Of a stretch of DNA of 40,885 nt, positions 996-40,885 are shown piece after piece. The DNA is from Thermoplasmatota archaeon. GTDB taxonomy: Archaea > Thermoplasmatota > Penumbrarchaeia > Penumbrarchaeales > Penumbrarchaeaceae. The stretch is taken from NCBI GenBank assembly GCA_965234725.1, contig CBDDUX010000028.1, positions 1-40,885 on the forward strand, written 5' to 3'. A program made the translations under genes and the position numbers. A model generated the notes under the pieces. The model searched no databases. It had not been told where the DNA came from and saw nothing but the letters and a program-made list of their open reading frames with translations. Every line of letters begins with the position of its first letter. Position 1 is the stretch's first letter.

Positions 996-1790
996 ATGTG
1001 GGTCCTGACTCTCCTTCTGGTCTATACAAGCGGAGCACTTGGAGGTTGGTTCATAGAACTCCTATACAGGTCCTACAAGATGAAACACCTTGTTAACCCT
1101 GGGTTCCTAAACGGTCCTTATCTGCCGATGTACGGGTTCGGAACCGTTTTCCTCTATCTGATCTCAACGATCGAGGTTGATCTTCTTCTTAAAATTGGTC
1201 TGTTCGCTTTGGGGACAACTGTCCTGGAATTGATCACCGGGATCATTTTTACAGAATTCTTCAATATCAGATTGTGGGACTATTCCAAGGAGCCACTTAA
1301 TTTCAAGGGCCAGATCTGTTTGAGATTCTCGATTTACTGGACCCTACTATCCATTCTGTTCTATTTCATAGCCTATCCGTTCATAGAGGACCTTGCCAGA
1401 TTATATCAGGATCATATATGGACATCTCTATTCGTTGGTCTTTTCTACGGCGTATTTCTCACTGATGTTTACAACCAGTTCTCACTAGCTTTCAGAATAA
1501 GAAAAGCTGTAAGGACCTTCAACAAGGAATATCTGATCAGGTTCAGGATGGATATGAAGACGCTGAGAAGAGAGATGAGATCACATCTCAAGGAGAACAA
1601 ACTTGCAAATTCCATCGAGAGATATTTCATCCCCTTCAATAGGATCTCACATGGGGACCTTATTGATCGGTTCAATGATCAGGTTAGGTCATATATGGAT
1701 AATTTGAACAATGATATCAAGAAGAAAGGATCGGAATTCAAGGAAAAGATGAGAGAGGACCTAATGAAAATTGAAGACAAGGTCCGATGA
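996..1790 (+). CDS. Membrane protein, putative ABC transporter permease (ABC_trans_CmpB-like)
   Basis: Several TM helices. GFLNGPYLPMYGFG and RLWDYSKEPLNFKGQICLRFSIYW are characteristic of this family. Charged helical C-terminus. Confidence 0.75.
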   Translation: MWVLTLLLVYTSGALGGWFIELLYRSYKMKHLVNPGFLNGPYLPMYGFGTVFLYLISTIEVDLLLKIGLFALGTTVLELITGIIFTEFFNIRLWDYSKEPLNFKGQICLRFSIYWTLLSILFYFIAYPFIEDLARLYQDHIWTSLFVGLFYGVFLTDVYNQFSLAFRIRKAVRTFNKEYLIRFRMDMKTLRREMRSHLKENKLANSIERYFIPFNRISHGDLIDRFNDQVRSYMDNLNNDIKKKGSEFKEKMREDLMKIEDKVR

Positions 1791-2020: not shown

Positions 2021-5000
2021 ATGATGGTAATAGGGAAAAGAATATTCTGTCGAGAAATGGAGGTTATTATTGCGGTAATTATAACCCTTGGTATGATATC
2101 AACGCTCCTTCCTATCGGATATGCCAAAGAAATTAGAGAAAGCAATTCTAGAGGTGTAGACGGTTGGACAGATATTGCAGAAGAAAAAGGGTCTTTCTTT
2201 CTTGACACCTCTCATGATATGATCATTTCTTACGATGAAGGAGAGGATACGGTCATATTCGGAGAGTCCTACGATCCCTATTATGATCTTGAGGGACCAA
2301 TAAGAAAGGCCGTTGATAGAGCGCCACAATGGTTGAACGATACTCTTGTATGGTCATTCCTGAATATCTACAGCCAATACAGGATGAAGTTTGCTGAGAT
2401 ACTTCTCAACGAATCTATAGACAGCAGGTACATGGATGAGATCGCTTTCACTCTCGCATACATGCCATCCACATTCCTGAACTATTACAGGATAGAGGGA
2501 AAGTTCCTTTGGGAGAATGCAGATATCATGTACACCGTATCTGACGATGTTAGATATGCCGAGATCTCCGATTACAACCTCTCGGATGGTCAACATTCAA
2601 CTATAACTTACAAAGTTCCATCCGGGAATGTGACCATGCCTGAGAAGATCTACTACTATTACGTGGTCATGCCAAAGATCGGTTCCGATAACTTGGAATA
2701 CATGGACCCGGAAACCGGTGAGTTCGCCTTCTCATATGACGGAGGAGAATTTTGGAGGACCTGGCTCTATAATAACAACCACACAGGTTTCCCTCTTTTA
2801 AAGGATTATCTGGCCAGCGAGGATTATCTCTGGAATGGTACCATGAACCAGATAGAGAAAAATGGTGCCGTTGGTGCCCTTACTAAATGGGAAATGGAAT
2901 CAATGATGTTCGGTATGCCTGTGGTCAGGCAAATCAATCCCATCTTCATATATAGGAACCACATGGGTATGTGCGGGGAGAATGCGTACATCCTTGCTAG
3001 TGTCGCAAAAATAGCCCTGATTCCAACGGTGATCACTGTGACATGGGAAGGAAATCATGAATGGAATGATTTCTGGGAGCGGGGTTGGCATCAATGGGAA
3101 GGATATTCAGGTCAGATAGATAATCCAAGTTGTGAAGGTGCACCCGGAACAATAACTGCATTCACATCAGTCAATCCAGATTTCTCACATTTCAGTTTAA
3201 CCGGTTGTTATACAACCACATCAAACCTGACTGTAAAGGTTTCCGATCAGGATGGTATTCCTGTAGATGGGGTTCTAGTAAAATTGCATTCATATCCAGC
3301 GATCAATGTTGATGGATCATTGGGTCTCATCTCTAACTTGACTGACGTCAATGGAGAGACGACCTTTGAGATAGGTACAGGTTTCAGCTACTTCGTAAAT
3401 TACAGGGCACCGATTGGAGGGCCACCCGATCAAAACGCTCAAGCGGTCTTTGCCTGCACGACGACAGTACCAGGTGCCGATTATATTTTCAATCTTACCC
3501 TCCCCGGAAAGATGCCTCTGAAAGTGAATTACTCAGATACCAAAGAGATGACATACGGTCTGAGATTCAATATCTCGGCTGAAGAAATCGACCATCTAAC
3601 CAACTTCTATGAGGATGATATGGATTTCAATGTGAGAATATGGAAGGGATATGAGGATATTACCAGATTGTCGGTACATTTCCTGGATGATAATAACCTT
3701 CAACTCTATAGACAGGGAAAGAAGTTTTTCACAAGTGGTGTAGTGAATTTGACTGAAGACAAGGAAGGATCAATAATTCTTGAGGATAAAAAATGGAACA
3801 TCCTGATAGCGGGAAAGAGCGCACCTTTGACTCGGACTTATGCGTCCTTGAACATTAATGTGAGCAGATCGCTAGTTACACCCGAGTCACTGATCATATC
3901 TCCAATAAATGGTTCCCTTTTCAAAGTGGAAGAGTGGGTTACATTTGAAGGGGATATCGATTTCCTAATGGGGAGTAACCAAGGTTATTCATTTAGATGG
4001 TTCGATAGATTATCGTCCTCTATCCTGTCAGAAAAGAGGTCCTTCAGTATGCAATTCGATGTGGGTACCCATGTAATCGATTTCGAGATCTGGAAGGATG
4101 GAATTATGATATCAACCTCAGTGGTTGAGTTCAAGGTATATCAGCCTAATAGACCACCTATAGCTGTAATAGCAAGTCCTTCAAACAACGACGTTTTCAC
4201 ATATGGTACCAAAGTGGAGTTTTCCGCCGAAGGTAGTTACGATCCGGATGAAGATGGTATCTCATACCGATGGAGTGAATTAGGGATCAATATAACCATT
4301 TCGAATCAGAAGGAGTTCTCTTCAAAGTTCGATGTAGGAGTTCACTTTATCGAGTTATTGGTCACAGATGATGAGGGGGATTCAACAAAAGAACAGGTGA
4401 AATTCAGGATATTGGAACCCACCTTTCCGCCAGTACCAACTATCAGATCTCCAATTTCCAATTGGAAAACCTATGAGGATGAATGGATAGAACTTAATGC
4501 CAGCGGAACCTACGATCTGGATGGGGACGTTCTGAAATACACGTGGATAAGTTCCATAGATGATGTGATCTCAAAATCTAAGATTGATAGCGTACATCTG
4601 TCAGTCGGAAACCATATTATCGAACTGCAGGTGAGCGACGGAATGTACACTGAATCCAAGTTCGTCAATGTTACTGTCATGGAGAGGGAGGTTGAGATCC
4701 AAGATTCTGAACCCGTATCTTTGATAATTTCTCCTTATGTAATGGTTGAATATTTTGTATCGGACCTGATCGAGTTCAATGCAAGTGCCAGTTATGATCC
4801 CGATGGAAATACAAATCTGACCTTTGAGTGGAGATTGAATGGCGAACCTATATCTAGCGAAAAAGTGTTTTTTAAGTATCTTACGGAAGGAAGTCATCAG
4901 ATCCAGCTCTCCGTTTTCTCCGGAGATCTGGTTTCAAATTCCTCTCAGATAATTACTGTAATTGACAGGATCCCAATCATGAAAATCCGTGTAAATGAAA

Positions 5001-5422
5001 CAATATGGATTGATAGTGAGATCATTAAAATAACATCATTCGAGAACATCACATTCGATGCTTCAGGATGTAGGGACCCTGATGGGAGTGAACTCTCCTA
5101 CGATTGGTCAATAAATGGCACAAGTATCTCAAATAACATAGAATTCGTCCATTCGTTCGAACCGGGAATGTTTCTGGTCCATCTGACCATCCGTGATGGT
5201 GGAGGGAAGGTCAATTCATTTTCTTTGTACATCAACTCCTCTAAGATAATCGAATCTAAAATGGATGAACCGGTGGTTAATGATGAAGGATCCAATGGAA
5301 AAGGGACCCTACATCAATTGTTTGTGATAATACCTATCGTCATTCTACTAATTATCATGGGTTTGTTAATCTTCCTGGTTATTTGGTACCGAAAAAACAG
5401 AGAAGAAAACATCACCAACTGA
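2021..5422 (+). CDS. Membrane-anchored surface protein: transglutaminase-like domain, carboxypeptidase-regulatory-like domain and PKD repeats
   Basis: Signal-like N-terminus (true start may be ATG 2057). GMCGE...NHEWNDFW...GWHQW fits a transglutaminase-like Cys/His core. Repeated SYDPD/ASGTYDLDGD PKD signatures. C-terminal TM helix followed by RKNR. Confidence 0.75.
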   Translation: MMVIGKRIFCREMEVIIAVIITLGMISTLLPIGYAKEIRESNSRGVDGWTDIAEEKGSFFLDTSHDMIISYDEGEDTVIFGESYDPYYDLEGPIRKAVDRAPQWLNDTLVWSFLNIYSQYRMKFAEILLNESIDSRYMDEIAFTLAYMPSTFLNYYRIEGKFLWENADIMYTVSDDVRYAEISDYNLSDGQHSTITYKVPSGNVTMPEKIYYYYVVMPKIGSDNLEYMDPETGEFAFSYDGGEFWRTWLYNNNHTGFPLLKDYLASEDYLWNGTMNQIEKNGAVGALTKWEMESMMFGMPVVRQINPIFIYRNHMGMCGENAYILASVAKIALIPTVITVTWEGNHEWNDFWERGWHQWEGYSGQIDNPSCEGAPGTITAFTSVNPDFSHFSLTGCYTTTSNLTVKVSDQDGIPVDGVLVKLHSYPAINVDGSLGLISNLTDVNGETTFEIGTGFSYFVNYRAPIGGPPDQNAQAVFACTTTVPGADYIFNLTLPGKMPLKVNYSDTKEMTYGLRFNISAEEIDHLTNFYEDDMDFNVRIWKGYEDITRLSVHFLDDNNLQLYRQGKKFFTSGVVNLTEDKEGSIILEDKKWNILIAGKSAPLTRTYASLNINVSRSLVTPESLIISPINGSLFKVEEWVTFEGDIDFLMGSNQGYSFRWFDRLSSSILSEKRSFSMQFDVGTHVIDFEIWKDGIMISTSVVEFKVYQPNRPPIAVIASPSNNDVFTYGTKVEFSAEGSYDPDEDGISYRWSELGINITISNQKEFSSKFDVGVHFIELLVTDDEGDSTKEQVKFRILEPTFPPVPTIRSPISNWKTYEDEWIELNASGTYDLDGDVLKYTWISSIDDVISKSKIDSVHLSVGNHIIELQVSDGMYTESKFVNVTVMEREVEIQDSEPVSLIISPYVMVEYFVSDLIEFNASASYDPDGNTNLTFEWRLNGEPISSEKVFFKYLTEGSHQIQLSVFSGDLVSNSSQIITVIDRIPIMKIRVNETIWIDSEIIKITSFENITFDASGCRDPDGSELSYDWSINGTSISNNIEFVHSFEPGMFLVHLTIRDGGGKVNSFSLYINSSKIIESKMDEPVVNDEGSNGKGTLHQLFVIIPIVILLIIMGLLIFLVIWYRKNREENITN

Positions 5423-5457
5423 TAATTCTCAATTTAATTTCAAGATATTTATAAGAT

Positions 5458-5482
5458 AGTGGCCCGGTCGGGACCTTTGAAC
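5458..5482 (-). repeat. tRNA-Ala 3'-end fragment, copy A
   Basis: AGTGGcCCGGTCGGGA(cc)TTTGAAC vs tRNA locus 14338-14360 AGTGGACCGGTCGGGATTTGAAC: 1 mismatch plus a 2-nt insertion. Confidence 0.85.
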
Positions 5483-5680
5483 TGTATTGATATCTACGAA
5501 CATTAAAGTTCAAAGGGCCAAACAAAAAACGGTTCCGATTATATTATTATCATTTTTTGTTGTGTACAAGCAATTTGTAGCAATGGTTTTCGTAGAAATT
5601 TGGAATTGACGATAGAAAACCATTGCGGAATAGGTCCACTCTCCGATTCTAATTATAAAACAATTAAAGGAGAGTGGACC
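5474..5680. repeat. Three consecutive perfect inverted repeats with 23-24 nt loops
   Basis: CCTTTGAACT 5474-5483 / AGTTCAAAGG 5507-5516; GCAATGGTTTTC 5580-5591 / GAAAACCATTGC 5615-5626; GGTCCACTCTCC 5633-5644 / GGAGAGTGGACC 5669-5680. Confidence 0.85.
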
Positions 5681-5711
5681 GATCGGGATCCACCTCCATA
5701 ATGGTTTAGAA
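5672..5711 (-). repeat. tRNA-Ala 3'-end fragment, copy B, with GTTTAGAA arm
   Basis: GAGTGGACCGaTCGGGAT (17/18 to the tRNA locus). GTTTAGAA at 5704 has the same offset as in copies D and F. Confidence 0.85.
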
Positions 5712-5893
5712 ATCATATTATTATGTTTGAATTACTGCCACTTGGTGTTCTTGTTGCTCAATTTACTGTATCATTTTTAGGGTACAGTCCAAAATTCTTA
5801 GAGAATCCATCTGACCATCCGGAAATATGTACCGTACTTACAATAAAACTTTAATAAAGTATACAGATTTAAAATCGCCAGATAAAGGAAATA

Positions 5894-8800
5894 ATGGCGA
5901 TCCCAATGACCTTCAAACTACCGTCTTCAGCATTATCACTAATCATAACAATTCTCATCGGATCGCTGATCCTCACACCATCGATTCAGATCAGTGGTTT
6001 GGGGGAGATCAGCGAGAAAGAAGGATATCAATTTGCTTCATTCAGTTCAAATCTACCGGTGACCTACGATCTGCGAAATGTCAGCGGGGAGAATTACGTC
6101 ACATCGGTCAAGAATCAAAGCGGAGGGACATGCTGGACACACGGGGCGATGGCCTCGATGGAGGGGAACCTGTTGATGACCGGGGAGTGGACCTCAGTCA
6201 ATGAGACAGGTGAACCGAACCTGGCCGAGTACCACCTGGATTGGTGGAACGGATTCAACAAGCACAACAATGATGATATCACCCCATCCACCGGTGAGGG
6301 GTTGGATGTACATTACGGTGGGGATTATCTGGTCACATCCGCTTCCATGTCCCGTGGGGAAGGAGCCGTTAGGGATATCGACGGCCAGTCATTTTCCATA
6401 CCACCGAATCGAACCGACCCGTCCTATCACAAATATTACGCCAGGGACATCGAATGGTATGTATTGAACGAAAATCTGAGCAATATCGATTTGATCAAAT
6501 CGAAGATCATTGAAAACGGCGTCATGGGAACCTGCATGACGTATTCCTCCGCCTTCATGGACTATTCGAGATATACCCATTATCAGCCTCCAGCTGTGGC
6601 AATGGAACCGAACCATGCCGTCTCTATCGTAGGATGGAACGACTCCAAGGTCACGCAGGCCCCGCTTCTCGGAGCATGGTTGGTAAAGAACAGCTGGGGT
6701 CCCTCCTGGGGTTTGAACGGATACTTCTGGATATCATATTACGACAAGTACACCGCAAAACATCCGGAGATGGGAGCGATCTCTTTCATCGATGTGGAGT
6801 ATCTATCCTACAATCATACTTATTATCATGACTACCACGGTTGGAGGGATACCCTTCAGAATACTAGCGAGGCGTTCAATTCATTTATTCCCGGTGAGGA
6901 AGAACAGCTTCAGGCGGTGAACTTCTACACCGCATCCGATAATGTCGATTTCGAGGTTGTCATCTACGATACTTTCCGGGACGGGAAGCTGTCCGAACCG
7001 CTATCGAAGGTAAATGGAAGTATCAACCATACCGGCCTGCACACCGTGGACCTTATCGAACCGGTAAACCTGGAATCAGGAGATGATTTCCATATTTACC
7101 TAAGTTTGTCGGAAGGAGGACATCCATACGATCGAACATCGGAGATACCGGTCCTCCTCGATGGACCCTTTCAGGGAACGATCGTCAGATCGACATCCTC
7201 TCCGAATCAAAGTTGGTATCGGAACGGATCGAAATGGGACGACCTCTTCTACCTTAACAGCACCGCCAATTTCTGTATAAAGGGACTAGTCGGTCATCTG
7301 AGCATCATGAATCCGGTAAACAGATCCCACGTTAACGGTGAGATCGCGATCGAGGGAGATGCCTCATGGGCCATAGACAGGATCGAGATCCGACTGGACG
7401 GAGAGATTCTTGACATAATCCGGGATGTACCAGAGGATTGGTCGATTCCCCTCAACACGACCCTTATCCCCGAAGGGGATCACAGAGTTGATGTGTCGGG
7501 ATATAACGGGACCGTGATCAGGCACAGATCGGTAGAATTCACTGTGGATCGGACACCTCCGGTGTCGACGATCCTGGTAATGGGTCCCGAGGGAGAGAGA
7601 GGTTGGTTAACGGGGGAGGCGGAGGTCAATCTCACTGCAGTGGACGATCTTGCGGTTGATCATGTCGAATATCGGATCAACGGTGGGGATTGGCAGGCCT
7701 ATTCTGGAAATATCTCCCTAGACATCGACGGCGTATACATCCTGAAATACAGATCATCGGATATTCTGGGAAATATCGAAGAGGGGAATGAGGCAATCAT
7801 AAAGATCGATGCAGGGTATCCTTCAACGGAATACACAATATACGGTGAGATGGGTGAGAGAGATTGGTACACTTCACCGATTTCTCTGAATCTGACCGCG
7901 GAGGACGAAACAAGCGGTGTCGATATGACCTATTACAACCTTAACGGCGGTGATTGGTCAGTTTACACAAAGAAGATAATGATAGATGACGGCGGCAGCT
8001 ATTCATTTGGATTCTATTCGATCGATACGGCAGGCAATACTGGGGAGATCATGGTCATCAACTTCAGCATGGATAATGATATTCCCTTGGTGGAAACCAC
8101 CATCTCCGGTGAGAAAGGGGAAAACGGCTGGTTCCTGTCGAATGTCAGTGTTACCATGTCAGGATTCGACGGAACGAGTGGCGTGTCCAATATCTCCTAT
8201 GGAGTGAACGGTGGCACATGGAAATACTACTCAGAGATGTTCGGGATCGATACCGAAGGCGAGAACCGGATCGATTACAACGTAGAGGACCAAGCGGGAA
8301 ATATTGCTGAGTTAACATCCGAAACGGTATTGATCGATACCGGCGCACCGAGTTCGAACTTGAAAATACAAGGTGATCTCGGGAATAACGACTGGTTCAT
8401 TACCGGAACCGTCGTCGATATTCGGGGTGAGGATGAGATCAGCGGTTTCTACAAGATCGAGATCCGCCTCGACGGGGGAGAATGGAAGGATTTTAAACCC
8501 AATATGGTCATCGATGAGAACGGGCATCACTTCATCGAATACCGGTCAATTGACATAGCTGGCAACACGGAGGAGAGCCGAAATGTTTCTTTCAGGATTG
8601 ACATTGTTCCTCCGGCGATATCCGAACTTGTAGGAGCGGAGATAGTCAATGATACCGGGAATTCCCTCTACATCTCTTGGACAGCTGCTGATCAGGAAAG
8701 CGGAGTATTGAACCATTCCATCTCCATCGACGGAAGTCGTTTCATCGAACTCGGAACAAACACTAGCTGGGAATTACAGGATCCCGAAGCGGGTCAGCAC

Positions 8801-9151
8801 ATGATCATGATCAGAACGTATGATTCAGCCGGCAACACGGCAGTGGAATACATTATCGTTACCACAAACCCGTTCAATCCTCTCGATCCAAGCAGAGGAA
8901 ACGAGACCATACTCGATGATGATGATACGTCAGTTGATCCCCCCGTGAACGAAACGACCAATGGCGGGACCGGGGCAGGATGGATCATAGCCATAATACT
9001 TCTCCCGGTTGTGATCCTGGTCGTGGCGGTTTTGATCTCTCTTTTTCTCATTTCACGCCTGAAAAACGATGATGATCCTCGTGGAATCGATGAAGATGCC
9101 GGAGATCCCGATCGGAACCGGGGTCCCGTTCCACCTAAAAGCGATGGTTGA
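5894..9151 (+). CDS. Membrane-anchored papain-family (C1A) cysteine peptidase with lectin-like domain and Ig-like (OmpL47-type) repeats
   Basis: Signal peptide. Catalytic motifs [20 protein letters not shown] and VKNSWG are intact. Repeated GxxGWF...D..SGV...YRSIDxAGNxE modules. C-terminal TM helix. Confidence 0.9.
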
Positions 9152-9269
9152 CAATGCGGTAATCGTTGATGAGATGACATTATCAATTACCAAACAGACA
9201 AGCGGATGATGGGATATCCAAGAGTACTCACAAATTATAATATATACTTTTATTATCTATTTTTACAAT

Positions 9270-9401
9270 AGTGGACTGGTCGAGTTCTAAACCGGTATTG
9301 ATTTGGATATCAATAATGATATATTATCAATATATATACTAAAATTATAAAGATAATATAGAATGGACCGGTCGGGTTCTATATTGATTCTGGTTTAGAA
9401 C
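9270..9401 (-). repeat. Paired tRNA-Ala 3'-end fragments, copies C and D (92-bp spacing)
   Basis: C 9270-9293 AGTGGACtGGTCGaGtTcTaAACC (19/24). D 9364-9376 TGGACCGGTCGGG (13/13) with GTTTAGAAC at 9393. Ungapped colinearity with 14246-14355 (about 69/110 by hand). Confidence 0.85.
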
Positions 9402-9429
9402 GAATATCAAGAACAAATAATTGGAGGGT

Positions 9430-12400
9430 TCATTTGGACTTAATAACTACTTCAAAAGAGATCTGAAAAATGTTCAAACCTTCTTCACTCGCAATCCAGA
9501 GTTGATCGTCGAATAATTCGATATCCCTGACTGAATTGCTCAACAATCCATGAGTTTTATTTATGAACATCCATTCTTCTGTTGTTTTATTGTATATTTT
9601 GACCCCATATTTCGTTCCCAGGTAAATCCTATCATCCTCCATCTCAATATCAGCAATCCAATCTTCCTGAGTTAAAATGGTGCCGATATTTAGGGAGATG
9701 GAACGGAATGCTACATTATCATTGTTAAGTTGCCAAAGAACGATATCATCCTTGTTCACTGACATAATTTCTGGCCTGAGATTATAAAATGACCCATATA
9801 CCGAATGATAGTTATCCTTATCCGTCTTCTCTATCCATGACATTGTCCAGTCATCCCAGAAATATAATTGTTCTTCTGAGGTATTGAATATGTATATGCC
9901 GCTTAAGGTCATTAAGTAGATATTATCTCCCTCTTTCTCGATGGATTGAACATAATCATCTATCAGATACCCGTTCTTTGACCCAAATGCAGTCCATGTT
10001 CCCGTCATTTTATTATAACAGCTTATTCCACCAAATGGACGAATTCCCATTGTATATTGCCAATTTCCTGATGTTGCTACCCAAACGAAATCGTCATCGG
10101 CAATTATGTCATCAACCCAGTAATATCCATGTTCGGCTTCTCCAAGTCCAGTTTCCAATGTGAAATTACTCCAGGTGCCCTCTATTTGATCATAAAGTGA
10201 TATTCCACCATAAGTGCCGACCCATACGATCTCATCGTCTACCTCGATACAATTGATCCAATTTGAAAGAAGTCCATTACTTTCATTGAAGTACAACATT
10301 TCATCAGTATCCGGATCGTATCTATACAGTCCGTTATCATCAGAATCCCAATCAAAGCAACTGATCCATGAATATTCATCCGTAACCTCGATCTCCCGGA
10401 TATTTTCAAGATTAAAATGACCGATCTCTTCAAATTTGATGATTTCCACTTCTTTCTGGTTAATTGGGATTTCATCCACCGAATTGTGGTTCCCGGTTTC
10501 TTTCAATAAAATTGCTATTATCGGAAGTGTAAAGAGGAGTAATACCGAAATCACCATTGTCTTTGTTTTAATCTCCCCTTTTCTTCTTAATAATAGAAAA
10601 AACAACAAAATAAGTCCCATATATAAAATTACGAAAACAATGTAAATCTTCCCATCATTTTCCTTATGCAGTGTCCAGTTCCCGGAATCATTCGGAAATT
10701 GGTCCAATTCCAATCCTAAGGTCGAATTCTTCCTTGATTGGCCAACATTCCATTGATCGGGATATCCATCATTATCAGAATCAATGCTCGCAGAAATATC
10801 CAAGGGGAAGTCATCGGTATTATCACCTGTGCCATCATTATCGGTATCATTCCATTCGGAGGGGTTCTCTGGGAATGCATCCCGATTATCTCCCCATCCA
10901 TCTCTATCCGTATCATTCCAATCAAATGGATCCTCCGGAAATACATCTCGGTTGTCTCCCCATCCATCATGGTCCGTATCTTTCCATTCAGCAGGATTTT
11001 TTATAAAAACATCCTGGTTATCTCCCCATCCATCATTGTCCGTGTCATTCCATTCTGTTGGATCATTAGGGAACAGGTCCCTATTGTCATCCCATCCGTC
11101 CCTGTCGGGATCATTCCATTCCCTGGGTTCCGGAAATCCATATCCGGATATCAGATATGTCTGGCCTGCTTCCAATCCGCCTTCATCATTATAACCAGCC
11201 CCGATGAGGATATCATCGAAACCATCACCATTCACATCACCGGCTCCTGAAATGTCATACCCAGAATGATCAGAAGCTGCCTCCCCGATAAATGACACAT
11301 CAGCACAAGCTAACCTCATATCCATAATCCAACCGCTGACCCTACCCAAGATGATGTATGTTTGGCCTGCTCGGTACCCGCCCTCATCATTAAACCGAGC
11401 TCCAATAATCAAGTCATCGTATCCGTCACTATTTAGATCGCCGGCCCCGGAAACCGGATACCCTGACCAATCACCGCTATGTTCGCCCAGGAACGAAGCA
11501 TCCGATAAGGAAAGATCCATACCCAATCTCCAGCCGTTCGCTCGACCAAGTATCAGATAGGTCTGACCTGCGGATCCCTTTTCCTCATCATTTAAACGTG
11601 CTCCAATTAAAATATCGTCGTAACCATCTCCATTCACATCACCAGCAATCGAAACGGAGGAACCAGAATAATCTCTGTTTGCTTCACCAATGAAGGATGC
11701 ATCTGGAGACAAATCCATATCCTTGTTCCAACCGTTGCCTCGGCCAAGAATAAGTAAAGTCCTGCCCACATTGTATCTTCTGTCATCATTGTACCCATCA
11801 GATCCAAGGAGAATATCGTCATATCCATCACCGTTCACATCTCCCCCTCCCGATACGGATTCTCCGGATGGCAAAGGGATCGATCCATTCAATGAGGACA
11901 AGTCCATGTTCTTGCTCCAACCGGTGGATCGGCCCTGAACAAGATAAGATTCGTACCTTTCAGATCCGATGAGTATGTCGTCGTATCCATCCCCGTTCAC
12001 ATCACCGGCTCCGGAGATCGCATTGTCAGAACAATCTGTGAACGATGCATTTGCAAGTGACATGTTCATGTCCGCTCTCCATCCAGTGGAACGACCGAAG
12101 AAAAGATATCCATGTATCCAGTCTGGCCATTCTTCATCATGTGCTTCTGCCGCAATGAGTATATCATCATATCCGTCACCGTTGATATCACCTACTCCGG
12201 ATACGGATTTCCCCAACAGATCACCCTCGGTCTCCCCGAGGAATGATGCGTCTGATAGGGATAGATCCGTATCTCTTTTCCATCCAGTTGTCCTACCAAG
12301 TATCAGATATGCCTGACCCGCATTTTCCCCTCCCTCATCGTTCACACTTGCCCCTATGAGTATATCATCGAGGCCATCACCGTTCACGTCCCCCGCTCTG

Positions 12401-12615
12401 GAAAGGGATCTTCCGGAAAGATCGTGTTCGGCTTCGCCTATGAATGTTGCTAGTGAAACTTGAGATAATTTCGTCTCTACGTGATAATTCTGATCATTTG
12501 TTGATGGGATGCTGCCTTCAGCTAAAATTAAGATATGATCTGCTTGGAGTATTAATGCTAATGTGATAACAAGAAGAAATGGGGTTGATATTATCCAATC
12601 TCCCTTTCCCTTCAT
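9430..12615 (-). CDS. Surface protein: FG-GAP (integrin-alpha) beta-propeller, TSP3-like Ca-binding repeats, two TM helices and a second (Reg_prop-like) beta-propeller
   Basis: Seven GD(V/I/L)NxDGxDDxxIx blades, 22-aa WNDTDxDGWGDNxDxFP repeats, two internal hydrophobic helices, and GLLSNWINCIE / GLLSNSVRDIE motifs. Confidence 0.85.
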   Translation of the reverse strand: MKGKGDWIISTPFLLVITLALILQADHILILAEGSIPSTNDQNYHVETKLSQVSLATFIGEAEHDLSGRSLSRAGDVNGDGLDDILIGASVNDEGGENAGQAYLILGRTTGWKRDTDLSLSDASFLGETEGDLLGKSVSGVGDINGDGYDDILIAAEAHDEEWPDWIHGYLFFGRSTGWRADMNMSLANASFTDCSDNAISGAGDVNGDGYDDILIGSERYESYLVQGRSTGWSKNMDLSSLNGSIPLPSGESVSGGGDVNGDGYDDILLGSDGYNDDRRYNVGRTLLILGRGNGWNKDMDLSPDASFIGEANRDYSGSSVSIAGDVNGDGYDDILIGARLNDEEKGSAGQTYLILGRANGWRLGMDLSLSDASFLGEHSGDWSGYPVSGAGDLNSDGYDDLIIGARFNDEGGYRAGQTYIILGRVSGWIMDMRLACADVSFIGEAASDHSGYDISGAGDVNGDGFDDILIGAGYNDEGGLEAGQTYLISGYGFPEPREWNDPDRDGWDDNRDLFPNDPTEWNDTDNDGWGDNQDVFIKNPAEWKDTDHDGWGDNRDVFPEDPFDWNDTDRDGWGDNRDAFPENPSEWNDTDNDGTGDNTDDFPLDISASIDSDNDGYPDQWNVGQSRKNSTLGLELDQFPNDSGNWTLHKENDGKIYIVFVILYMGLILLFFLLLRRKGEIKTKTMVISVLLLFTLPIIAILLKETGNHNSVDEIPINQKEVEIIKFEEIGHFNLENIREIEVTDEYSWISCFDWDSDDNGLYRYDPDTDEMLYFNESNGLLSNWINCIEVDDEIVWVGTYGGISLYDQIEGTWSNFTLETGLGEAEHGYYWVDDIIADDDFVWVATSGNWQYTMGIRPFGGISCYNKMTGTWTAFGSKNGYLIDDYVQSIEKEGDNIYLMTLSGIYIFNTSEEQLYFWDDWTMSWIEKTDKDNYHSVYGSFYNLRPEIMSVNKDDIVLWQLNNDNVAFRSISLNIGTILTQEDWIADIEMEDDRIYLGTKYGVKIYNKTTEEWMFINKTHGLLSNSVRDIELFDDQLWIASEEGLNIFQISFEVVIKSK
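10790..11120 (-). repeat. Intragenic 66-bp tandem repeat (about 5 units) encoding TSP3-like Asp-rich repeats
   Basis: GTATCATTCCATTC-like units recur near 10843, 10909, 10975, 11041 and 11107. Confidence 0.85.
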
Positions 12616-12757
12616 GAGAACTCATAGAGCATAATATATAAGTTGATTATTGAACAAAGATGACTTCCACAAGTCTTTTCATTCCTTCTTCGGAGAGTTG
12701 CGAATATACTATCTTAATGGAGATTTTTTCACATCAACCAGGCAAAGGTGAAAAACA

Positions 12758-12889
12758 AGTAGATCGACCGAGATTTGAACCTATTTGGAAGTAGAACGAA
12801 ATAATCACATATAACCCAGATATATGCCATAATAATCAAAATATTGAATGGTGGACCGGTCGGGATTTGATCCAATATTAGTTTAGAAC
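12758..12889 (-). repeat. Paired tRNA-Ala 3'-end fragments, copies E and F (92-bp spacing)
   Basis: E 12758-12781 (19/24) with TAGAAC at 12792. F 12851-12870 is a 20/20 match to 14339-14358, with GTTTAGAAC at 12881. 12758-12873 aligns ungapped to 14246-14361 (about 88/116 by hand). Confidence 0.92.
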
Positions 12890-13041
12890 TAATTCTTTCA
12901 TGACCACTCTTTGCGAATAATACAATGACGGTTTTTTCAAGGTGACTATATTTCAGTTGGTGAAATTGAGATAAAATAAGTTGGCGATTACAGATTACAA
13001 TATCACTAATGAAACCCCATGAAGAACACTTTTTCATTTCA

Positions 13042-13947
13042 CTACTTGGCACCATATGCATAGATTACGTCAAGGGTGACCCTCCGGATATTTTTTCCCT
13101 CGAAGTATCTTCTGATATCCTTTCTGAAGGTTTCCATGTATCCTTCCGGGAGGAAGGACGCATAGAACTCCCCTGTTGAGGATGTTATGAACTCGTACAT
13201 CTCTCGGCTGGTGTCATATTCATCATACCAGGTGGACCGTTCGATCTTGATATCCTTGAGTCCGTTCTTTCCGAGATATTCTCTCACTTTTTCAGGTCCT
13301 CTCGGCCAGTAGAAGAATCTGTGGCCCAGGGCGTATCTCTTCGGAACAACCGCCAGAACAGCGTCCGGGAGTTCCGCATAATGGCGAGGTCCGTGGACCG
13401 AGAGTGCGATTGTACCTTCCGGTTTCACAACCCTCTTCATCTCGATTAACATCTTCTCGGGATCGGGAACCATTCCGAGGACCATGCTAGATACAACCAT
13501 ATCGAAGATGTTGTCTTCAAAGGGAAGATCCTCCGCATCCGCGACCTTGATCTCCAGTTTATCAATATAGCGATCGGAGGTCTCGATCTTCTTTTTCAGC
13601 GCTTTGAGCATGTATTCGGATATGTCTGTTGCACATACCTTTCGGGCTCCCTTATCAAGGAGTTTTAGGGCGGAAATTCCGGTACCGCTTCCGATGTCGA
13701 GAACGTATTTTCCCTTGACATCGATACCTTGGAACAGTTCCTCTGCAACCTTCTCGTAATGCTTCTGACCGTATTCATCGTAATCCTTCATGACAGATGT
13801 CAAATCTCCATCGTAGGATTTCATGATCCTCTCTTTCATATCCTTCGTATCCCGAAGATTTCCAGCAATCCATGCGATGATGTTGTTCACGTTCATCAGC
13901 AATTTCTTGAAGAATGACACTTCCCCGGTCCAGAGTATATCAGGCAT
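13042..13947 (-). CDS. Class I SAM-dependent methyltransferase (Methyltransf_11/UbiE-like)
   Basis: VLDIGSGTG motif I, ADAEDLPFEDNIFDMV, and EMKRVVKPEG. Confidence 0.9.
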   Translation of the reverse strand: MPDILWTGEVSFFKKLLMNVNNIIAWIAGNLRDTKDMKERIMKSYDGDLTSVMKDYDEYGQKHYEKVAEELFQGIDVKGKYVLDIGSGTGISALKLLDKGARKVCATDISEYMLKALKKKIETSDRYIDKLEIKVADAEDLPFEDNIFDMVVSSMVLGMVPDPEKMLIEMKRVVKPEGTIALSVHGPRHYAELPDAVLAVVPKRYALGHRFFYWPRGPEKVREYLGKNGLKDIKIERSTWYDEYDTSREMYEFITSSTGEFYASFLPEGYMETFRKDIRRYFEGKNIRRVTLDVIYAYGAK

Positions 13948-14245
13948 ACTTCCATACCATCCTTCTTCAGGACAATATTAGATATCGTAATATCAAATAT
14001 ACAAATCTTATCAATTATCCTCTTCATATATTTTTATAAATATCCTTGGCACTCACTTGGAATTGGTTTGGTATAAATTCTCCGCTCGAAATTTTTTATT
14101 AAATTTGTAAGGATTTAAGGTTTGGGAGAGAATAAAACGTTTCGACAGTATCAGATTTCAATTTCAATAGGCTTTTCTATGACAATGTTTTTAGAGATAA
14201 ATTCAACAGTTAATGATATTTGATATTCTCTTATCTTGGCAATAT

Positions 14246-14285
14246 AGTGGACCGGTCGAGACTTGAACCTATTTCATAGTAGAAC
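14246..14285 (-). repeat. tRNA-Ala 3'-end fragment, copy G, 92 bp downstream of the tRNA gene
   Basis: AGTGGACCGGTCGaGAcTTGAACC (22/24) with TAGAAC at 14280. Confidence 0.92.
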
Positions 14286-14326
14286 GAAATATTGTAATAT
14301 TATCCAGAATAATGATAGAATAATCT

Positions 14327-14332
14327 AAAAAA
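14327..14332 (-). terminator. Oligo-T archaeal terminator candidate for tRNA-Ala
   Basis: T6 run on the minus strand 7 nt after the discriminator base. Confidence 0.45.
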
Positions 14333-14339
14333 GGATGAG

Positions 14340-14413
14340 TGGACCGGTCGGGATTTGAACCCGAGGCCTCTCGCATGCCAAGCGAGCGATCTACCGAGCT
14401 GATCTACCGGCCC
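14340..14413 (-). tRNA. tRNA-Ala (GGC), CCA not encoded
   Basis: Reverse complement folds as GGGCCGG-TA-GATC-AGCTCGGTA-GATC-G-CTCGC-TT-GGC-AT-GCGAG-AGGCC-TCGGG-TTCAAAT-CCCGA-CCGGTCC-A, with the G3:U70 alanine identity pair. Confidence 0.97.
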
Positions 14414-14445
14414 ATAGAACTATTCGACCCCATTATCAAGATTTA

Positions 14446-14453
14446 TTATAAAA
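14446..14453 (-). promoter_or_regulatory. TATA box for tRNA-Ala
   Basis: TTTTATAA on the minus strand about 33-40 nt upstream of the mature 5' end. Confidence 0.6.
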
Positions 14454-14464
14454 ACCTTTGTGGA

Positions 14465-15688
14465 TCAATGAAAAACCGCCCTTTTTCCTTTTCTTCCATC
14501 ATTGTACTTTTTTAGACCTTTATTATATCGGCCAGTTGCAAGGAAATAACCAAGGATAACCAATGAAACGAACATGAACAGCTGAAGAAAACCAAATAAA
14601 AGGGCAACCAGGTATAACCACACATTACCAGTACTCACGAGGAAATTCCACATTCCGTGGTTGATAATGGAGAAAATAAAACCCGCTATTATCAACACGA
14701 AAAGGACCGCTCCAGTCAATAATCTATAAGATGTTAGATCCTTGGTCCTTTTTGCAATCTGCGGAGAGAGATAACGTCTGGTCCAGCCTATCAGGAAACC
14801 GATCATTGCAGGACCGAGCATATGTCCCATGATATTGAAAAATGACCTGAAACCGATCAGAAAGATGAATCCAACTCCTCCAGATGAGAAAACGGTCTGA
14901 CCTCCATAGATCATGTTCTCCAAAAGAGAGAATCCTGCACCGAAAGCAGATCCGTAAATGACTCCATCGGTCTCATCTTTTATCTGGGAAAAGATCAAGA
15001 AGAATCCCAATGACTTGAAGAACTCCTCAACGATAGGGGCGGAAAAGACTGCGGTACTCAGACCAAGGTCTTCCATCCACAAGGAGTTGGCTGTGTTCAT
15101 GAAAAGAGATGGAAAGGTAGAGATCATTCCCCATACGATCCCAAGGATAAGCATCCCTCTTGGTTCAGGTTCGTAGGGATCGAACGCATAGGTAAATGAG
15201 ATCCAGGCCATTGCAGGAAGTGTGATCGTAATGATGATCAATGGGATGGAGACAGGAGCAAGAAAACAGCACATATAGGGAAAGATGTTCAAGATACCGG
15301 TGATCACAAGGACTATTACAAAGAATACAACCATGATCGCAAGAAATGCCAGCCTGGAGAGAATGAAGTTCGATCTATAACCCTTGGAGTAATCCTTGAA
15401 TGCAACCTCATTGTGTCTGAAGAATTTCGATAATCCTTTTCCGTCCTCCGGTATCCTGGGAAATACTATCCTGTTAAGAAATATTCCGGAGAATATCACA
15501 ACCGGTATCAGGATGATCGTGAAGACCACCCCGAAGAATACTAGAACTTCCACAAAAAGAGTGGTGAAGATGTATACAATGCCCATAATGAAGGTTATTA
15601 TAAAAACAAAACCAAGGATTACAAGGAGACTTCCGAAATCCTTCAATATCCCTTTGAAGATATTCATGACGGCAAACTTCTCCTTCAT
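14465..15688 (-). CDS. PrsW-family intramembrane metalloprotease
   Basis: APIVEEFFK, DGVIYGSAFGAGFSLLEN, GH and HGMWN motifs, plus DPYEPEP and many TM helices. Confidence 0.9.
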   Translation of the reverse strand: MKEKFAVMNIFKGILKDFGSLLVILGFVFIITFIMGIVYIFTTLFVEVLVFFGVVFTIILIPVVIFSGIFLNRIVFPRIPEDGKGLSKFFRHNEVAFKDYSKGYRSNFILSRLAFLAIMVVFFVIVLVITGILNIFPYMCCFLAPVSIPLIIITITLPAMAWISFTYAFDPYEPEPRGMLILGIVWGMISTFPSLFMNTANSLWMEDLGLSTAVFSAPIVEEFFKSLGFFLIFSQIKDETDGVIYGSAFGAGFSLLENMIYGGQTVFSSGGVGFIFLIGFRSFFNIMGHMLGPAMIGFLIGWTRRYLSPQIAKRTKDLTSYRLLTGAVLFVLIIAGFIFSIINHGMWNFLVSTGNVWLYLVALLFGFLQLFMFVSLVILGYFLATGRYNKGLKKYNDGRKGKRAVFH

Positions 15689-40820: not shown

Positions 40821-40885
40821 GGGCCCGTGGTCTAGCTGGTTATGACGTCGCCTTCACACGGCGAAGATCTCCGGTTCAAATCCGG
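40821..40885 (+). tRNA. tRNA-Val (CAC), truncated by the window end
   Basis: GGGCCCG-TG-GTCTAGCTGGTTATGAC-G-TCGCC-TT-CAC-AC-GGCGA-AGATC-TCCGG-TTCAAAT-CCGG... Confidence 0.95.

Follow-up and report, generated by a model that had tools for sequence, protein, structure and literature searches.

A 40,885-nt stretch of DNA from an uncultured Thermoplasmatota archaeon of the family Penumbrarchaeaceae (contig CBDDUX010000028.1, positions 1 to 40,885, assembly GCA_965234725.1; the whole stretch is referred to as the window) was found to contain, between positions 5458 and 14413, a stack of single-gene units that trails a tRNA-Ala(GGC) gene and is punctuated by copies of the tRNA 3' end. We put the chances at about even that this region is a tRNA-anchored additive island of minimal units, for which tRNA-Ala(GGC) would be the docking site, and the balance is much the same for trans-acting site-specific recombination as the process that joins the units. 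A preliminary description of this DNA had proposed that cassette content be compared between relatives; it proved to differ at two loci (GGC and TGC), and the breakpoints fell in the core. The cores, the cassette ends and the insertions and deletions (indels) all agreed with the claim, made in the same description, that the units are discrete cassettes bounded by a core derived from the tRNA 3' end.

The window corresponds to contig C28 of the metagenome bin G000 (3.54 Mb in 114 contigs, completeness 97.65%, GC content 0.45), and the sequencing run that covered it best carries the label marine sediment. It was compared with four genomes of the same genus (G001 to G004), of which G004 is the closest relative, as judged by the 93% amino acid identity of the PrsW proteins of G000 and G004. 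Sequencing runs were used in the form of assembled contigs.

The stack behind tRNA-Ala(GGC)

The features of the stack, including the gene that lies beyond its last pair of cores, were as follows.

2021..5422, plus strand: gene for a PKD-domain surface protein (Pfam PKD_4/PKD; hydrophobic N- and C-terminal segments)
5460..5674, minus strand: L mini-module; core at 5460-5472 (1 mismatch), then hairpins A, B, C and D
5675..5711, minus strand: cassette end of the C1 unit; core at 5675-5687 (1 mismatch), 17-nt spacer, TTTAGAA at 5705-5711
5894..9151, plus strand: gene for a papain-family C1 peptidase with lectin-like and bacterial Ig domains, 1085 amino acids (Pfam)
9272..9363, minus strand: S mini-module; core variant TGGACTGGTCGAG at 9272-9284, homologous to the tRNA 3' end of G004
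9364..9400, minus strand: cassette end of the FG-GAP unit; core at 9364-9376, 17-nt spacer, TTTAGAA at 9394-9400
9430..12615, minus strand: gene for an FG-GAP repeat protein, 1061 amino acids (Pfam)
12760..12851, minus strand: S mini-module; degenerate core TAGATCGACCGAG; 75-76% identical to the unit at 14246-14361
12852..12888, minus strand: cassette end of the methyltransferase unit; core at 12852-12864, 17-nt spacer, TTTAGAA at 12882-12888
13042..13947, minus strand: gene for a class I S-adenosylmethionine (SAM) methyltransferase, 301 amino acids (Pfam Methyltransf_11/25)
14248..14339, minus strand: S mini-module adjoining the tRNA; core TGGACCGGTCGAG at 14248-14260
14339/14340-14413, minus strand: tRNA-Ala(GGC), intact (ARAGORN; Rfam, 65 bits); its last 13-22 nt form the repeated core

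On the plus strand the 3' end of tRNA-Ala(GGC) reads TGGACCGGTCGGG, which comprises the discriminator, the acceptor 3' strand and the T-stem 3' strand. The pattern used in the core search, TGGACCGGTCGRG (plus strand, 0-1 mismatch allowed), is the reverse complement of the T-stem 3' strand, the acceptor 3' strand and the discriminator, and matches were obtained at 5460, 5675, 9272, 9364, 12852, 14248 and 14340. The copy at 12760 is degenerate and missed this threshold; it lies in register with a 116-nt repeat family, D4 (9270, 12758 and 14246; 62-76% identity). All eight positions named in the preliminary description were confirmed, 12760 as the degenerate one, and its unit spacings of 1488, 3488 and 3689 nt were correct; between successive pairs there was exactly one gene, as it had stated, each supported by Pfam. 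The pairs do not form a two-part site: cores come in pairs because cargo-less modules of 92 nt (S) or 215 nt (L) sit between the gene cassettes, and each pair marks the two limits of one such mini-module. The window held three S modules (9272, 12760 and 14248) and one L module (5460-5674).

Across the 3.54-Mb genome the core pattern (at most one mismatch) gave 32 matches, compared with five for a reversed-pattern control, and 18 of the 32 were tRNA-Ala genes or clustered intergenic copies. Beyond the window, the same core was present on contigs C38 (seven copies), C12 (two, at the contig end) and C48 (one). Contig C103 begins with tRNA-Ala(TGC) and contig C102 ends with tRNA-Ala(CGC); the 3' ends of both are identical to that of tRNA-Ala(GGC), and C103:22-150 has its match in the tRNA-Ala(TGC) region at the end of the corresponding G004 array. 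Given these shared ends and this match, stacks are probably present at all three tRNA-Ala genes of G000, and the motif that the preliminary description had tied to tRNA-Ala(GGC) is common to the three. Because the three genes share the core, cassettes and modules would be able to move among three docking sites. The tRNA-Ala(CGC) segment was apparently inverted relative to the RDD-PGK-tRNA-Thr block (C102:9880-11424 compared with G004 L022:2552-5652), and a palindrome inside the core, GACCGGTC, might permit recombination in either orientation.

The ends of the gene cassettes had a fixed geometry. Eleven gene-side ends were collected by the core search alone in G000, G004 and G001; TTTAGAA was positioned exactly 17 nt past the core in seven of them, and a related heptamer was found at the same 17-nt distance in the S units. 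Nine exact sites of GGTTTAGAAC were present in the genome, seven of which were within 45 nt of a tRNA-Ala core. By itself the cassette-end hairpin folded weakly (z score of -1.1 for 5671-5725), and to judge from its sequence the fixed-geometry end looks like a protein-recognition site. In its T-stem part the core of each unit kept a variant of its own, CTCGA or CCCGA.

Each unit was nearly filled by one long intact open reading frame (ORF), and the GC content of the cassettes (0.42-0.49) was inside the range of the genome. Sequence reading places two cassette genes on each strand, and the cassettes appear to carry AT-rich, promoter-like leaders of their own. The PKD gene is probably the outermost cassette, with an undefined outer boundary; a core relic near 1815 was too degenerate to call. 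Elsewhere in G000 the arrays encoded a protein of 1420 amino acids with seven DOMON domains and a cytochrome b561-like region, fn3/DUF7948 proteins of 1404 and 1458 amino acids, an F5/8-type-C protein of at least 1796 amino acids and a protein of 751 amino acids with no family assignment. The cargo in relatives included a GLUG/PKD protein (1376 amino acids), an AbiEi_3-like protein (275 amino acids) and another methyltransferase (294 amino acids). Simple hydropathy analysis gave an N-terminal hydrophobic segment in nine of the ten proteins checked and a C-terminal one in several, but none in the methyltransferase; the C1 protein had both a hydrophobic N terminus and a C-terminal anchor. By domains and hydropathy most of the cargo consists of giant secreted or anchored surface proteins, and to that extent the suggestion in the preliminary description that the array would diversify the cell surface gained support.

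As single-stranded DNA, the L module of the window folded with a z score of -6.9, and its two flanking cores can pair to form a closing stem, which gives a cloverleaf-like fold; the module was 87% identical to C38:77500-77665. Folds at the S junctions were weaker (z scores of -4.1, -2.5 and -0.9). Immediately after the core at 9272, GTTCTAAACC (9284-9293) is the inverted repeat of GGTTTAGAAC after the core at 9364 (9392-9401); in the DNA fold with a z score of -4.1 this pairing encloses the S unit and the core at 9364, and it was absent at the other two S junctions. Six mini-modules follow tRNA-Ala(TGC) in G004 (L023:2399-3700), and in two pairs of them the 55 nt next to the core are the same, an identity suggestive of recent tandem duplication.

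Cassette content in relatives and metagenomes

Outside the stack, the following features were recorded.

996..1790, plus strand: PF06541 (ABC_trans_CmpB-like) gene, the conserved left flank (Pfam)
14465..15688, minus strand: PrsW-family protease gene, the conserved right flank (Pfam)
40821-40885, plus strand: second tRNA gene of the window, cut by the window end (Rfam, 44.3 bits)

At the GGC locus the flanks of G000 and G004 shared 86-87% nucleotide identity (86% for the CmpB-like gene, with homology stopping at 1791), and the C1 cassette shared 94.5% (5778-9293). This cassette directly abuts the tRNA in G004. The surplus in G000 amounted to 5.0 kb (9294-14337) and comprised, in order, an S module, the FG-GAP cassette, an S module, the methyltransferase cassette and an S module. 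The alignment stopped at 9293, which is 22 nt into the G004 tRNA, and resumed at 14338, the breakpoints being the core at 9272 and the tRNA 3' end. Neither the extra cassettes nor the PKD gene had a close homolog in the four genus genomes, G001 to G004; the FG-GAP gene gave repeat-level matches only (64-78% identity), and the window methyltransferase was only 29% identical to that of a G004 array. A second indel was found at the TGC locus, where the DOMON gene with its modules aligned between the two genomes at 87.5%. There, C38:73899-74059 aligned to a G004 module plus the tRNA 3' end, the core at C38:74039 corresponded to the G004 tRNA 3' end, and the surplus in G000 was at least 9.3 kb, containing the 751-amino-acid gene and the gene of at least 1796 amino acids.

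Amino acid identity between G000 and G004 was similar for the C1, PrsW and CmpB-like proteins (0.92-0.93). In contrast, identity at 4-fold degenerate sites was 0.914 for C1 (456 sites), 0.601 for PrsW (163 sites) and 0.725 for the CmpB-like gene (91 sites); therefore, the common ancestor of the C1 cassette is much more recent than that of the surrounding chromosome. A lateral-transfer signature is thereby supported, at the level of sequence comparison, for this one cassette. Within the C1 gene, 7.5% of residues, 4.7% of nucleotides and 8.6% of 4-fold sites differed between the two genomes, a pattern that suggests relaxed or diversifying selection on the C1 surface protein.

Homologs of the C1 protein were present in two of the five genus genomes; those in other genera were approximately 41% identical, and no tRNA-Ala or core was found within the flanks examined. 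In three runs from other samples (two studies) the C1 cassette alone was present at 90% likeness or more, and contigs of the X2 and X4 runs matched the window exactly from the core at 5675 onwards; missing cover in parts of the X2-X4 runs is no proof of absence. A joint of 5639 to 14336 in X3 (side 26, with 19 other letters between) resembled an L module of another organism next to tRNA-Ala and was not used.

The layout of tRNA or core, giant gene, hairpin arm and core recurred in G001, in G004, in a record of another Thermoplasmatota metagenome-assembled genome and in three metagenome contigs, and the single-gene layout was seen in at least nine cassettes across six sources. No integrase-sized ORF or recombinase was noted at the recurrent layouts in relatives and metagenome contigs. 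A search for the cassette-end pattern returned three records among GTDB species genomes (one of them bacterial and probably due to chance) and three contigs among JGI metagenomes. There were no matches in IMG/VR viral contigs, so no virus or plasmid attP was found.

The stack is composed of two alternating kinds of unit, single-gene cassettes and cargo-less mini-modules (S and L), with a direct copy of the last 13-22 nt of the tRNA as the boundary of each. The gene cassettes end, on the side away from the tRNA, in the small hairpin with TTTAGAA at 17 nt. Under the proposed mechanism, new units would enter at the tRNA-proximal core and older ones would be pushed outward; entry would occur by site-specific recombination inside the acceptor-strand part of the core, which would leave precise junctions within the core segment CCGGTCCA, whereas the T-stem part would be retained by each unit as its own variant. 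The enzyme would be supplied in trans, perhaps by transient elements rather than by a conserved host gene.

Hairpin modules behind other tRNA genes

The preliminary description had linked the motif to one tRNA, and this proved too narrow: related modules trail many other tRNAs and bear the ends of those tRNAs. The centre of the L unit also matched directly downstream of tRNA-Leu(GAG), tRNA-Glu(CTC), tRNA-Gly(GCC), tRNA-Arg(GCG) and tRNA-Ser(GGA), and in G000 the L family trails at least six tRNA species besides tRNA-Ala. These modules were flanked by the 3' end of their own tRNA and not by the tRNA-Ala core, and they also contained an inverted copy of the terminus of that tRNA plus its trailer. 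A census of own-end copies, which drew on 36 ARAGORN predictions (a set that included spurious long-intron calls) and on the last 16 nt, same strand, downstream, with at most two mismatches, identified copies downstream of 11 non-Ala tRNA genes; tRNA-Gly(GCC) was a twelfth.

Twelve aligned L modules (tRNA-Ala, Leu, Glu, Gly GCC and CCC, Arg and Ser) shared three hairpins, in which 92.6% of the pair cells were paired and 26 of the 33 pairs changed on both sides. Pairing was not as high in any of 500 shuffles, and slid controls reached 45-58%. The mean column identity was 71%, and modules behind different tRNAs were approximately 60-70% alike by eye. The hairpin-B motif was present in 13 of 24 genomes of the family (G000 included) and in one of 13 other genomes of the class, with two control hits.

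These properties bear on two other explanations. In the first, the hairpin modules are primary: they are selfish, non-coding, single-strand-folding elements of a REP/RAYT, IS200/IS605 or guide-bearing type that home to tRNA ends, and the genes are bracketed passively or moved as composites. Such elements would account for three covarying hairpins in modules behind these tRNAs, the direct and inverted copies of the end of its own tRNA that each module holds, the concentration of the hairpin-B motif in the family and the fold of the L module as DNA. We nevertheless consider this explanation quite unlikely. The Y1 transposase (PF01797) gave no matches in the whole genome (97.65% complete), the sole IS110-type gene of G000 is on another contig (C42), no terminal inverted repeats were seen by eye in the aligned modules, and the gene cassettes have an arm type of their own, unlike the L hairpins. 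Furthermore, modules behind different tRNAs are only some 60-70% alike, so their spread to new tRNAs appears to be old. IS200/IS605 or REP/RAYT elements in the strict sense were rejected, there being no Y1 HUH transposase in the genome.

In the second, the modules act at the level of RNA, as tRNA-like or terminator/insulator structures transcribed with or near the tRNA and the genes, and the tRNA-end copies serve RNA processing. Strong covariation of the hairpins, the cloverleaf-like fold that the flanking cores of the L module can close and T-runs after several hairpins speak for such a role. However, T5 tracts, which would stop archaeal transcription, occur inside the module on both strands, the locus was in no RNA run, and neither the cassette indels at cores nor the young silent-site divergence is explained. 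Rfam at the gathering threshold (77,465 bases) returned only tRNA, with no match to the modules or to RtT (RF00391); at E <= 1, the interval 5300-14500 gave the tRNA and one chance small nucleolar RNA (snoRNA) match only. A role in RNA was therefore judged very improbable. RtT repeats (RF00391) lie in tandem behind the tyrT tRNA-Tyr operon of E. coli, each with a copy of the tRNA 3' end; RtT units are not known to bracket genes, and the modules described here gave no RF00391 match.

Two further candidates were set aside. Casposons are marked by a Cas1 casposase inside the element, terminal inverted repeats and a 14-15-bp target duplication; the two Cas1 matches in G000 are both on contigs other than that of the window, the aligned modules lack inverted termini, and only the repeat length would fit. 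One Cas1 gene (a 408-amino-acid ORF) is at a contig start, C59:27-896, 1.5 kb from tRNA-Leu(CAG) at C59:2370-2456. Retro-copying, in the form of tRNA-primed reverse transcription that stops in the T-loop, was rejected since most tRNA-Ala copies are without CCA, like the gene, so the template was DNA and not mature tRNA.

Other module arrangements were also observed. At C20:24640-25491 (L031), tRNA-Arg(GCG) is followed by approximately four near-identical tandem 143-nt units and one L module; the units each start with the 3' end of tRNA-Arg itself and carry a T-arm-like GGTTCGAATCC on the opposite strand. A second module type was found behind tRNA-Gly, Glu, Gln and Leu on contigs C63, C109, C26, C77, C10, C3 and C5 (L033-L039). 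It consists of a short hairpin, a long hairpin, an opposite-strand T-arm-like motif and an inverted copy of the tRNA end, and its antisense strand could adopt a cloverleaf fold like that of a tRNA.

The putative recombining enzyme and known systems

In agreement with the statement in the preliminary description that the window holds no recombinase, profile searches of its contig gave no match to PF00589, in a six-frame search that read through stops, or to PF01548 (IS110 DEDD) and PF00239 (serine recombinase). Elsewhere in G000 there were seven PF00589 matches, at least three of which were beside a tRNA or fragment (two tRNA-Thr and one tRNA-Lys-like fragment), and one serine recombinase (C62) beside tRNA-Cys. 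Two paralogous gene pairs, each a 310-amino-acid tyrosine recombinase and a 173-amino-acid ORF, are located directly downstream of tRNA-Thr CGT and GGT (C102:6775-8221 and C44:20239-21685). Other genes occupy the corresponding tRNA-Thr(CGT) site in G004, so these pairs look like integrated elements.

Such integrase-bearing elements beside tRNA-Thr, tRNA-Cys and the tRNA-Lys-like fragment give some grounds for a further explanation, that the stack is made of decayed ordinary proviruses or islands integrated in tandem at the tRNA, and direct tRNA-fragment repeats fit the Islander principle (PMC4383910). This origin was regarded as extremely improbable. Reading through stops recovered no PF00589 remnant on the contig, the units are almost filled by one intact ORF, the same single-gene layout is found in at least nine cassettes from six sources, and the GC content of the cassettes is within the range of the genome.

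Several observations weigh against a tRNA-anchored island assembled by a trans-acting enzyme. PF00589 matches were unevenly distributed (seven in G000, four in G004, three in G003 and one partial match in G001), and G001 is 95% complete and holds a cassette plus modules, yet has only the partial match. There was no recombinase among the genes beside either of the two G004 arrays. The uneven counts and the lack of a recombinase by the G004 arrays leave a conserved host integrase for the arrays unsupported; we still infer, as the preliminary description did, a recombinase acting in trans, although PF00589 matches are not conserved in the genus. The C1 cassette of G004 has an outer end without a recognisable core, with homology starting at 5778, approximately 100 nt inside the G000 core at 5675. 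Every gene cassette of the window has an S module at its tRNA-facing end, a feature that the proposed mechanism does not explain. Contigs from the source sample had even depth over flanks and cassettes (approximately 1735-2086) and none skipped a cassette, but rare variants are invisible in contigs, so this is weak evidence. Every compared genome is a metagenome bin, and the differences may reflect loss in either relative, by deletion across direct repeats, as opposed to a gain in G000.

Some of these points would be expected if the region were a flexible island under general recombination, with modules and cores as portable homology or microhomology, swaps after DNA uptake and loss between direct repeats, and no dedicated recombinase. 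No conserved recombinase was found, the 92-215-nt modules (75-95% identical within and between genomes) could be homology arms, and in G004 the shared C1 cassette has its outer limit away from any core. In spite of this we consider it unlikely that general recombination is the whole explanation, since the breakpoints at two loci are inside the 13-22-nt core and not at arbitrary places within longer homology, unrelated cassettes share the fixed-geometry end (TTTAGAA at 17 nt in seven of 11) and unit-specific T-stem variants of the core are retained. The agent may be a helper-borne or unrecognised enzyme, or general recombination.

Of the known systems, the tRNA-anchored island proposed here is closest to the tandem accretion of integrase-less elements, the cis-mobilizable elements (CIMEs), at tRNA genes. 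CIMEs of the ICESt1 type in streptococci, as outlined in PMC5704250, have lost the integrase, have kept attL and attR and are served by an integrase in trans. As in the present case, they are stacked at a tRNA 3' end with att repeats flanking each element; they are, however, decayed multigene elements next to an integrase-bearing partner, whereas here at least nine single intact genes have a conserved hairpin end, none of the arrays contains or adjoins a partner element or an integrase, and they belong to an archaeon. Tandem islands are recognised by an intact tRNA at one end and direct repeats of its 3' segment; both were found here, as were presence/absence differences with breakpoints in the att repeat at the GGC and TGC loci. 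Successive integration at one tRNA, with older elements pushed outward, has been described in bacteria (bioRxiv 10.1101/2020.12.28.424599), and T-stem-region att sites were counted in 1836 of 3919 islands in the Islander survey (PMC4383910), in which arrays of three or more occurred only four times, each member having its own integrase. In Islander islands and in the tycheposon islands of Prochlorococcus, as here, a regenerated tRNA and displaced 3' fragments mark the unit ends, partial tRNAs are scattered through the islands and newer arrivals push older ones outward (PMC4383910; bioRxiv 10.1101/2020.12.28.424599). Each of those elements brings an integrase, often together with replication genes; none of the units here has one. 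Five distinctions from known tRNA islands can be named: single intact genes, a conserved hairpin end, interleaved modules, three tRNA-Ala genes and no nearby integrase.

By testable features the stack is not an integron. Integrons have mostly single-gene, unrelated cassettes with a folded recombination end, one docking site and an enzyme that is not cassette-encoded; their cassettes are co-oriented and share one promoter for expression. The arrays of mostly single-gene, unrelated units at one docking site are alike, and the discrete cassettes bear out that part of the integron likeness drawn in the preliminary description. The remainder did not hold: no integrase adjoins the stack, the cassettes point both ways instead of sharing one orientation, they appear to have AT-rich leaders of their own, the docking site is a tRNA gene end and cargo-less modules are interleaved. 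Where an integron cassette would have its attC site, the small hairpin with TTTAGAA at 17 nt was present in seven of 11 gene-side ends, weakly folded when taken alone. The dif modules of Acinetobacter plasmids and other elements that exploit host Xer recombinases are likewise small gene modules flanked by short recombination sites, with a host enzyme presumed to move them in trans (PMC7399989, PMC13141974 and PMC12907356). Their sites are XerC/D dif-like and alternate in orientation on plasmids, as opposed to the direct tRNA 3'-end copies on a chromosome seen here.

A bolder version of the proposal is offered tentatively and seems doubtful. The lineage would run integron-like gene capture without a linked integrase, with three tRNA-Ala ends as interchangeable docking sites and the core, 17 nt and TTTAGAA hairpin as an attC-like end. 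A helper or unrecognised recombinase would shuffle giant adhesin-type genes and hairpin modules, and the modules behind other tRNAs would be cargo-less, retargeted members.

In a literature search on such modules or cassettes in archaea and on RtT repeats, which covered papers exclusive of their supplementary files, no paper describing this architecture was found. Recombination assays have concrete substrates in the covarying hairpin modules and in the cassette end with its conserved sequence, and the two indel loci supply exact junctions to look for in reads. The data suggest that the stack is a way of swapping surface genes that is like tRNA-anchored islands but unusually minimal. If the proposal of a tRNA-anchored island of minimal units is correct, tRNA-anchored island building would extend to units without any mobility gene, which raises the question of which enzyme acts, and the stack, with its one-gene units plugging in at tRNA genes, would be a compact example of the turnover of a giant-surface-protein repertoire in an uncultured sediment archaeon.

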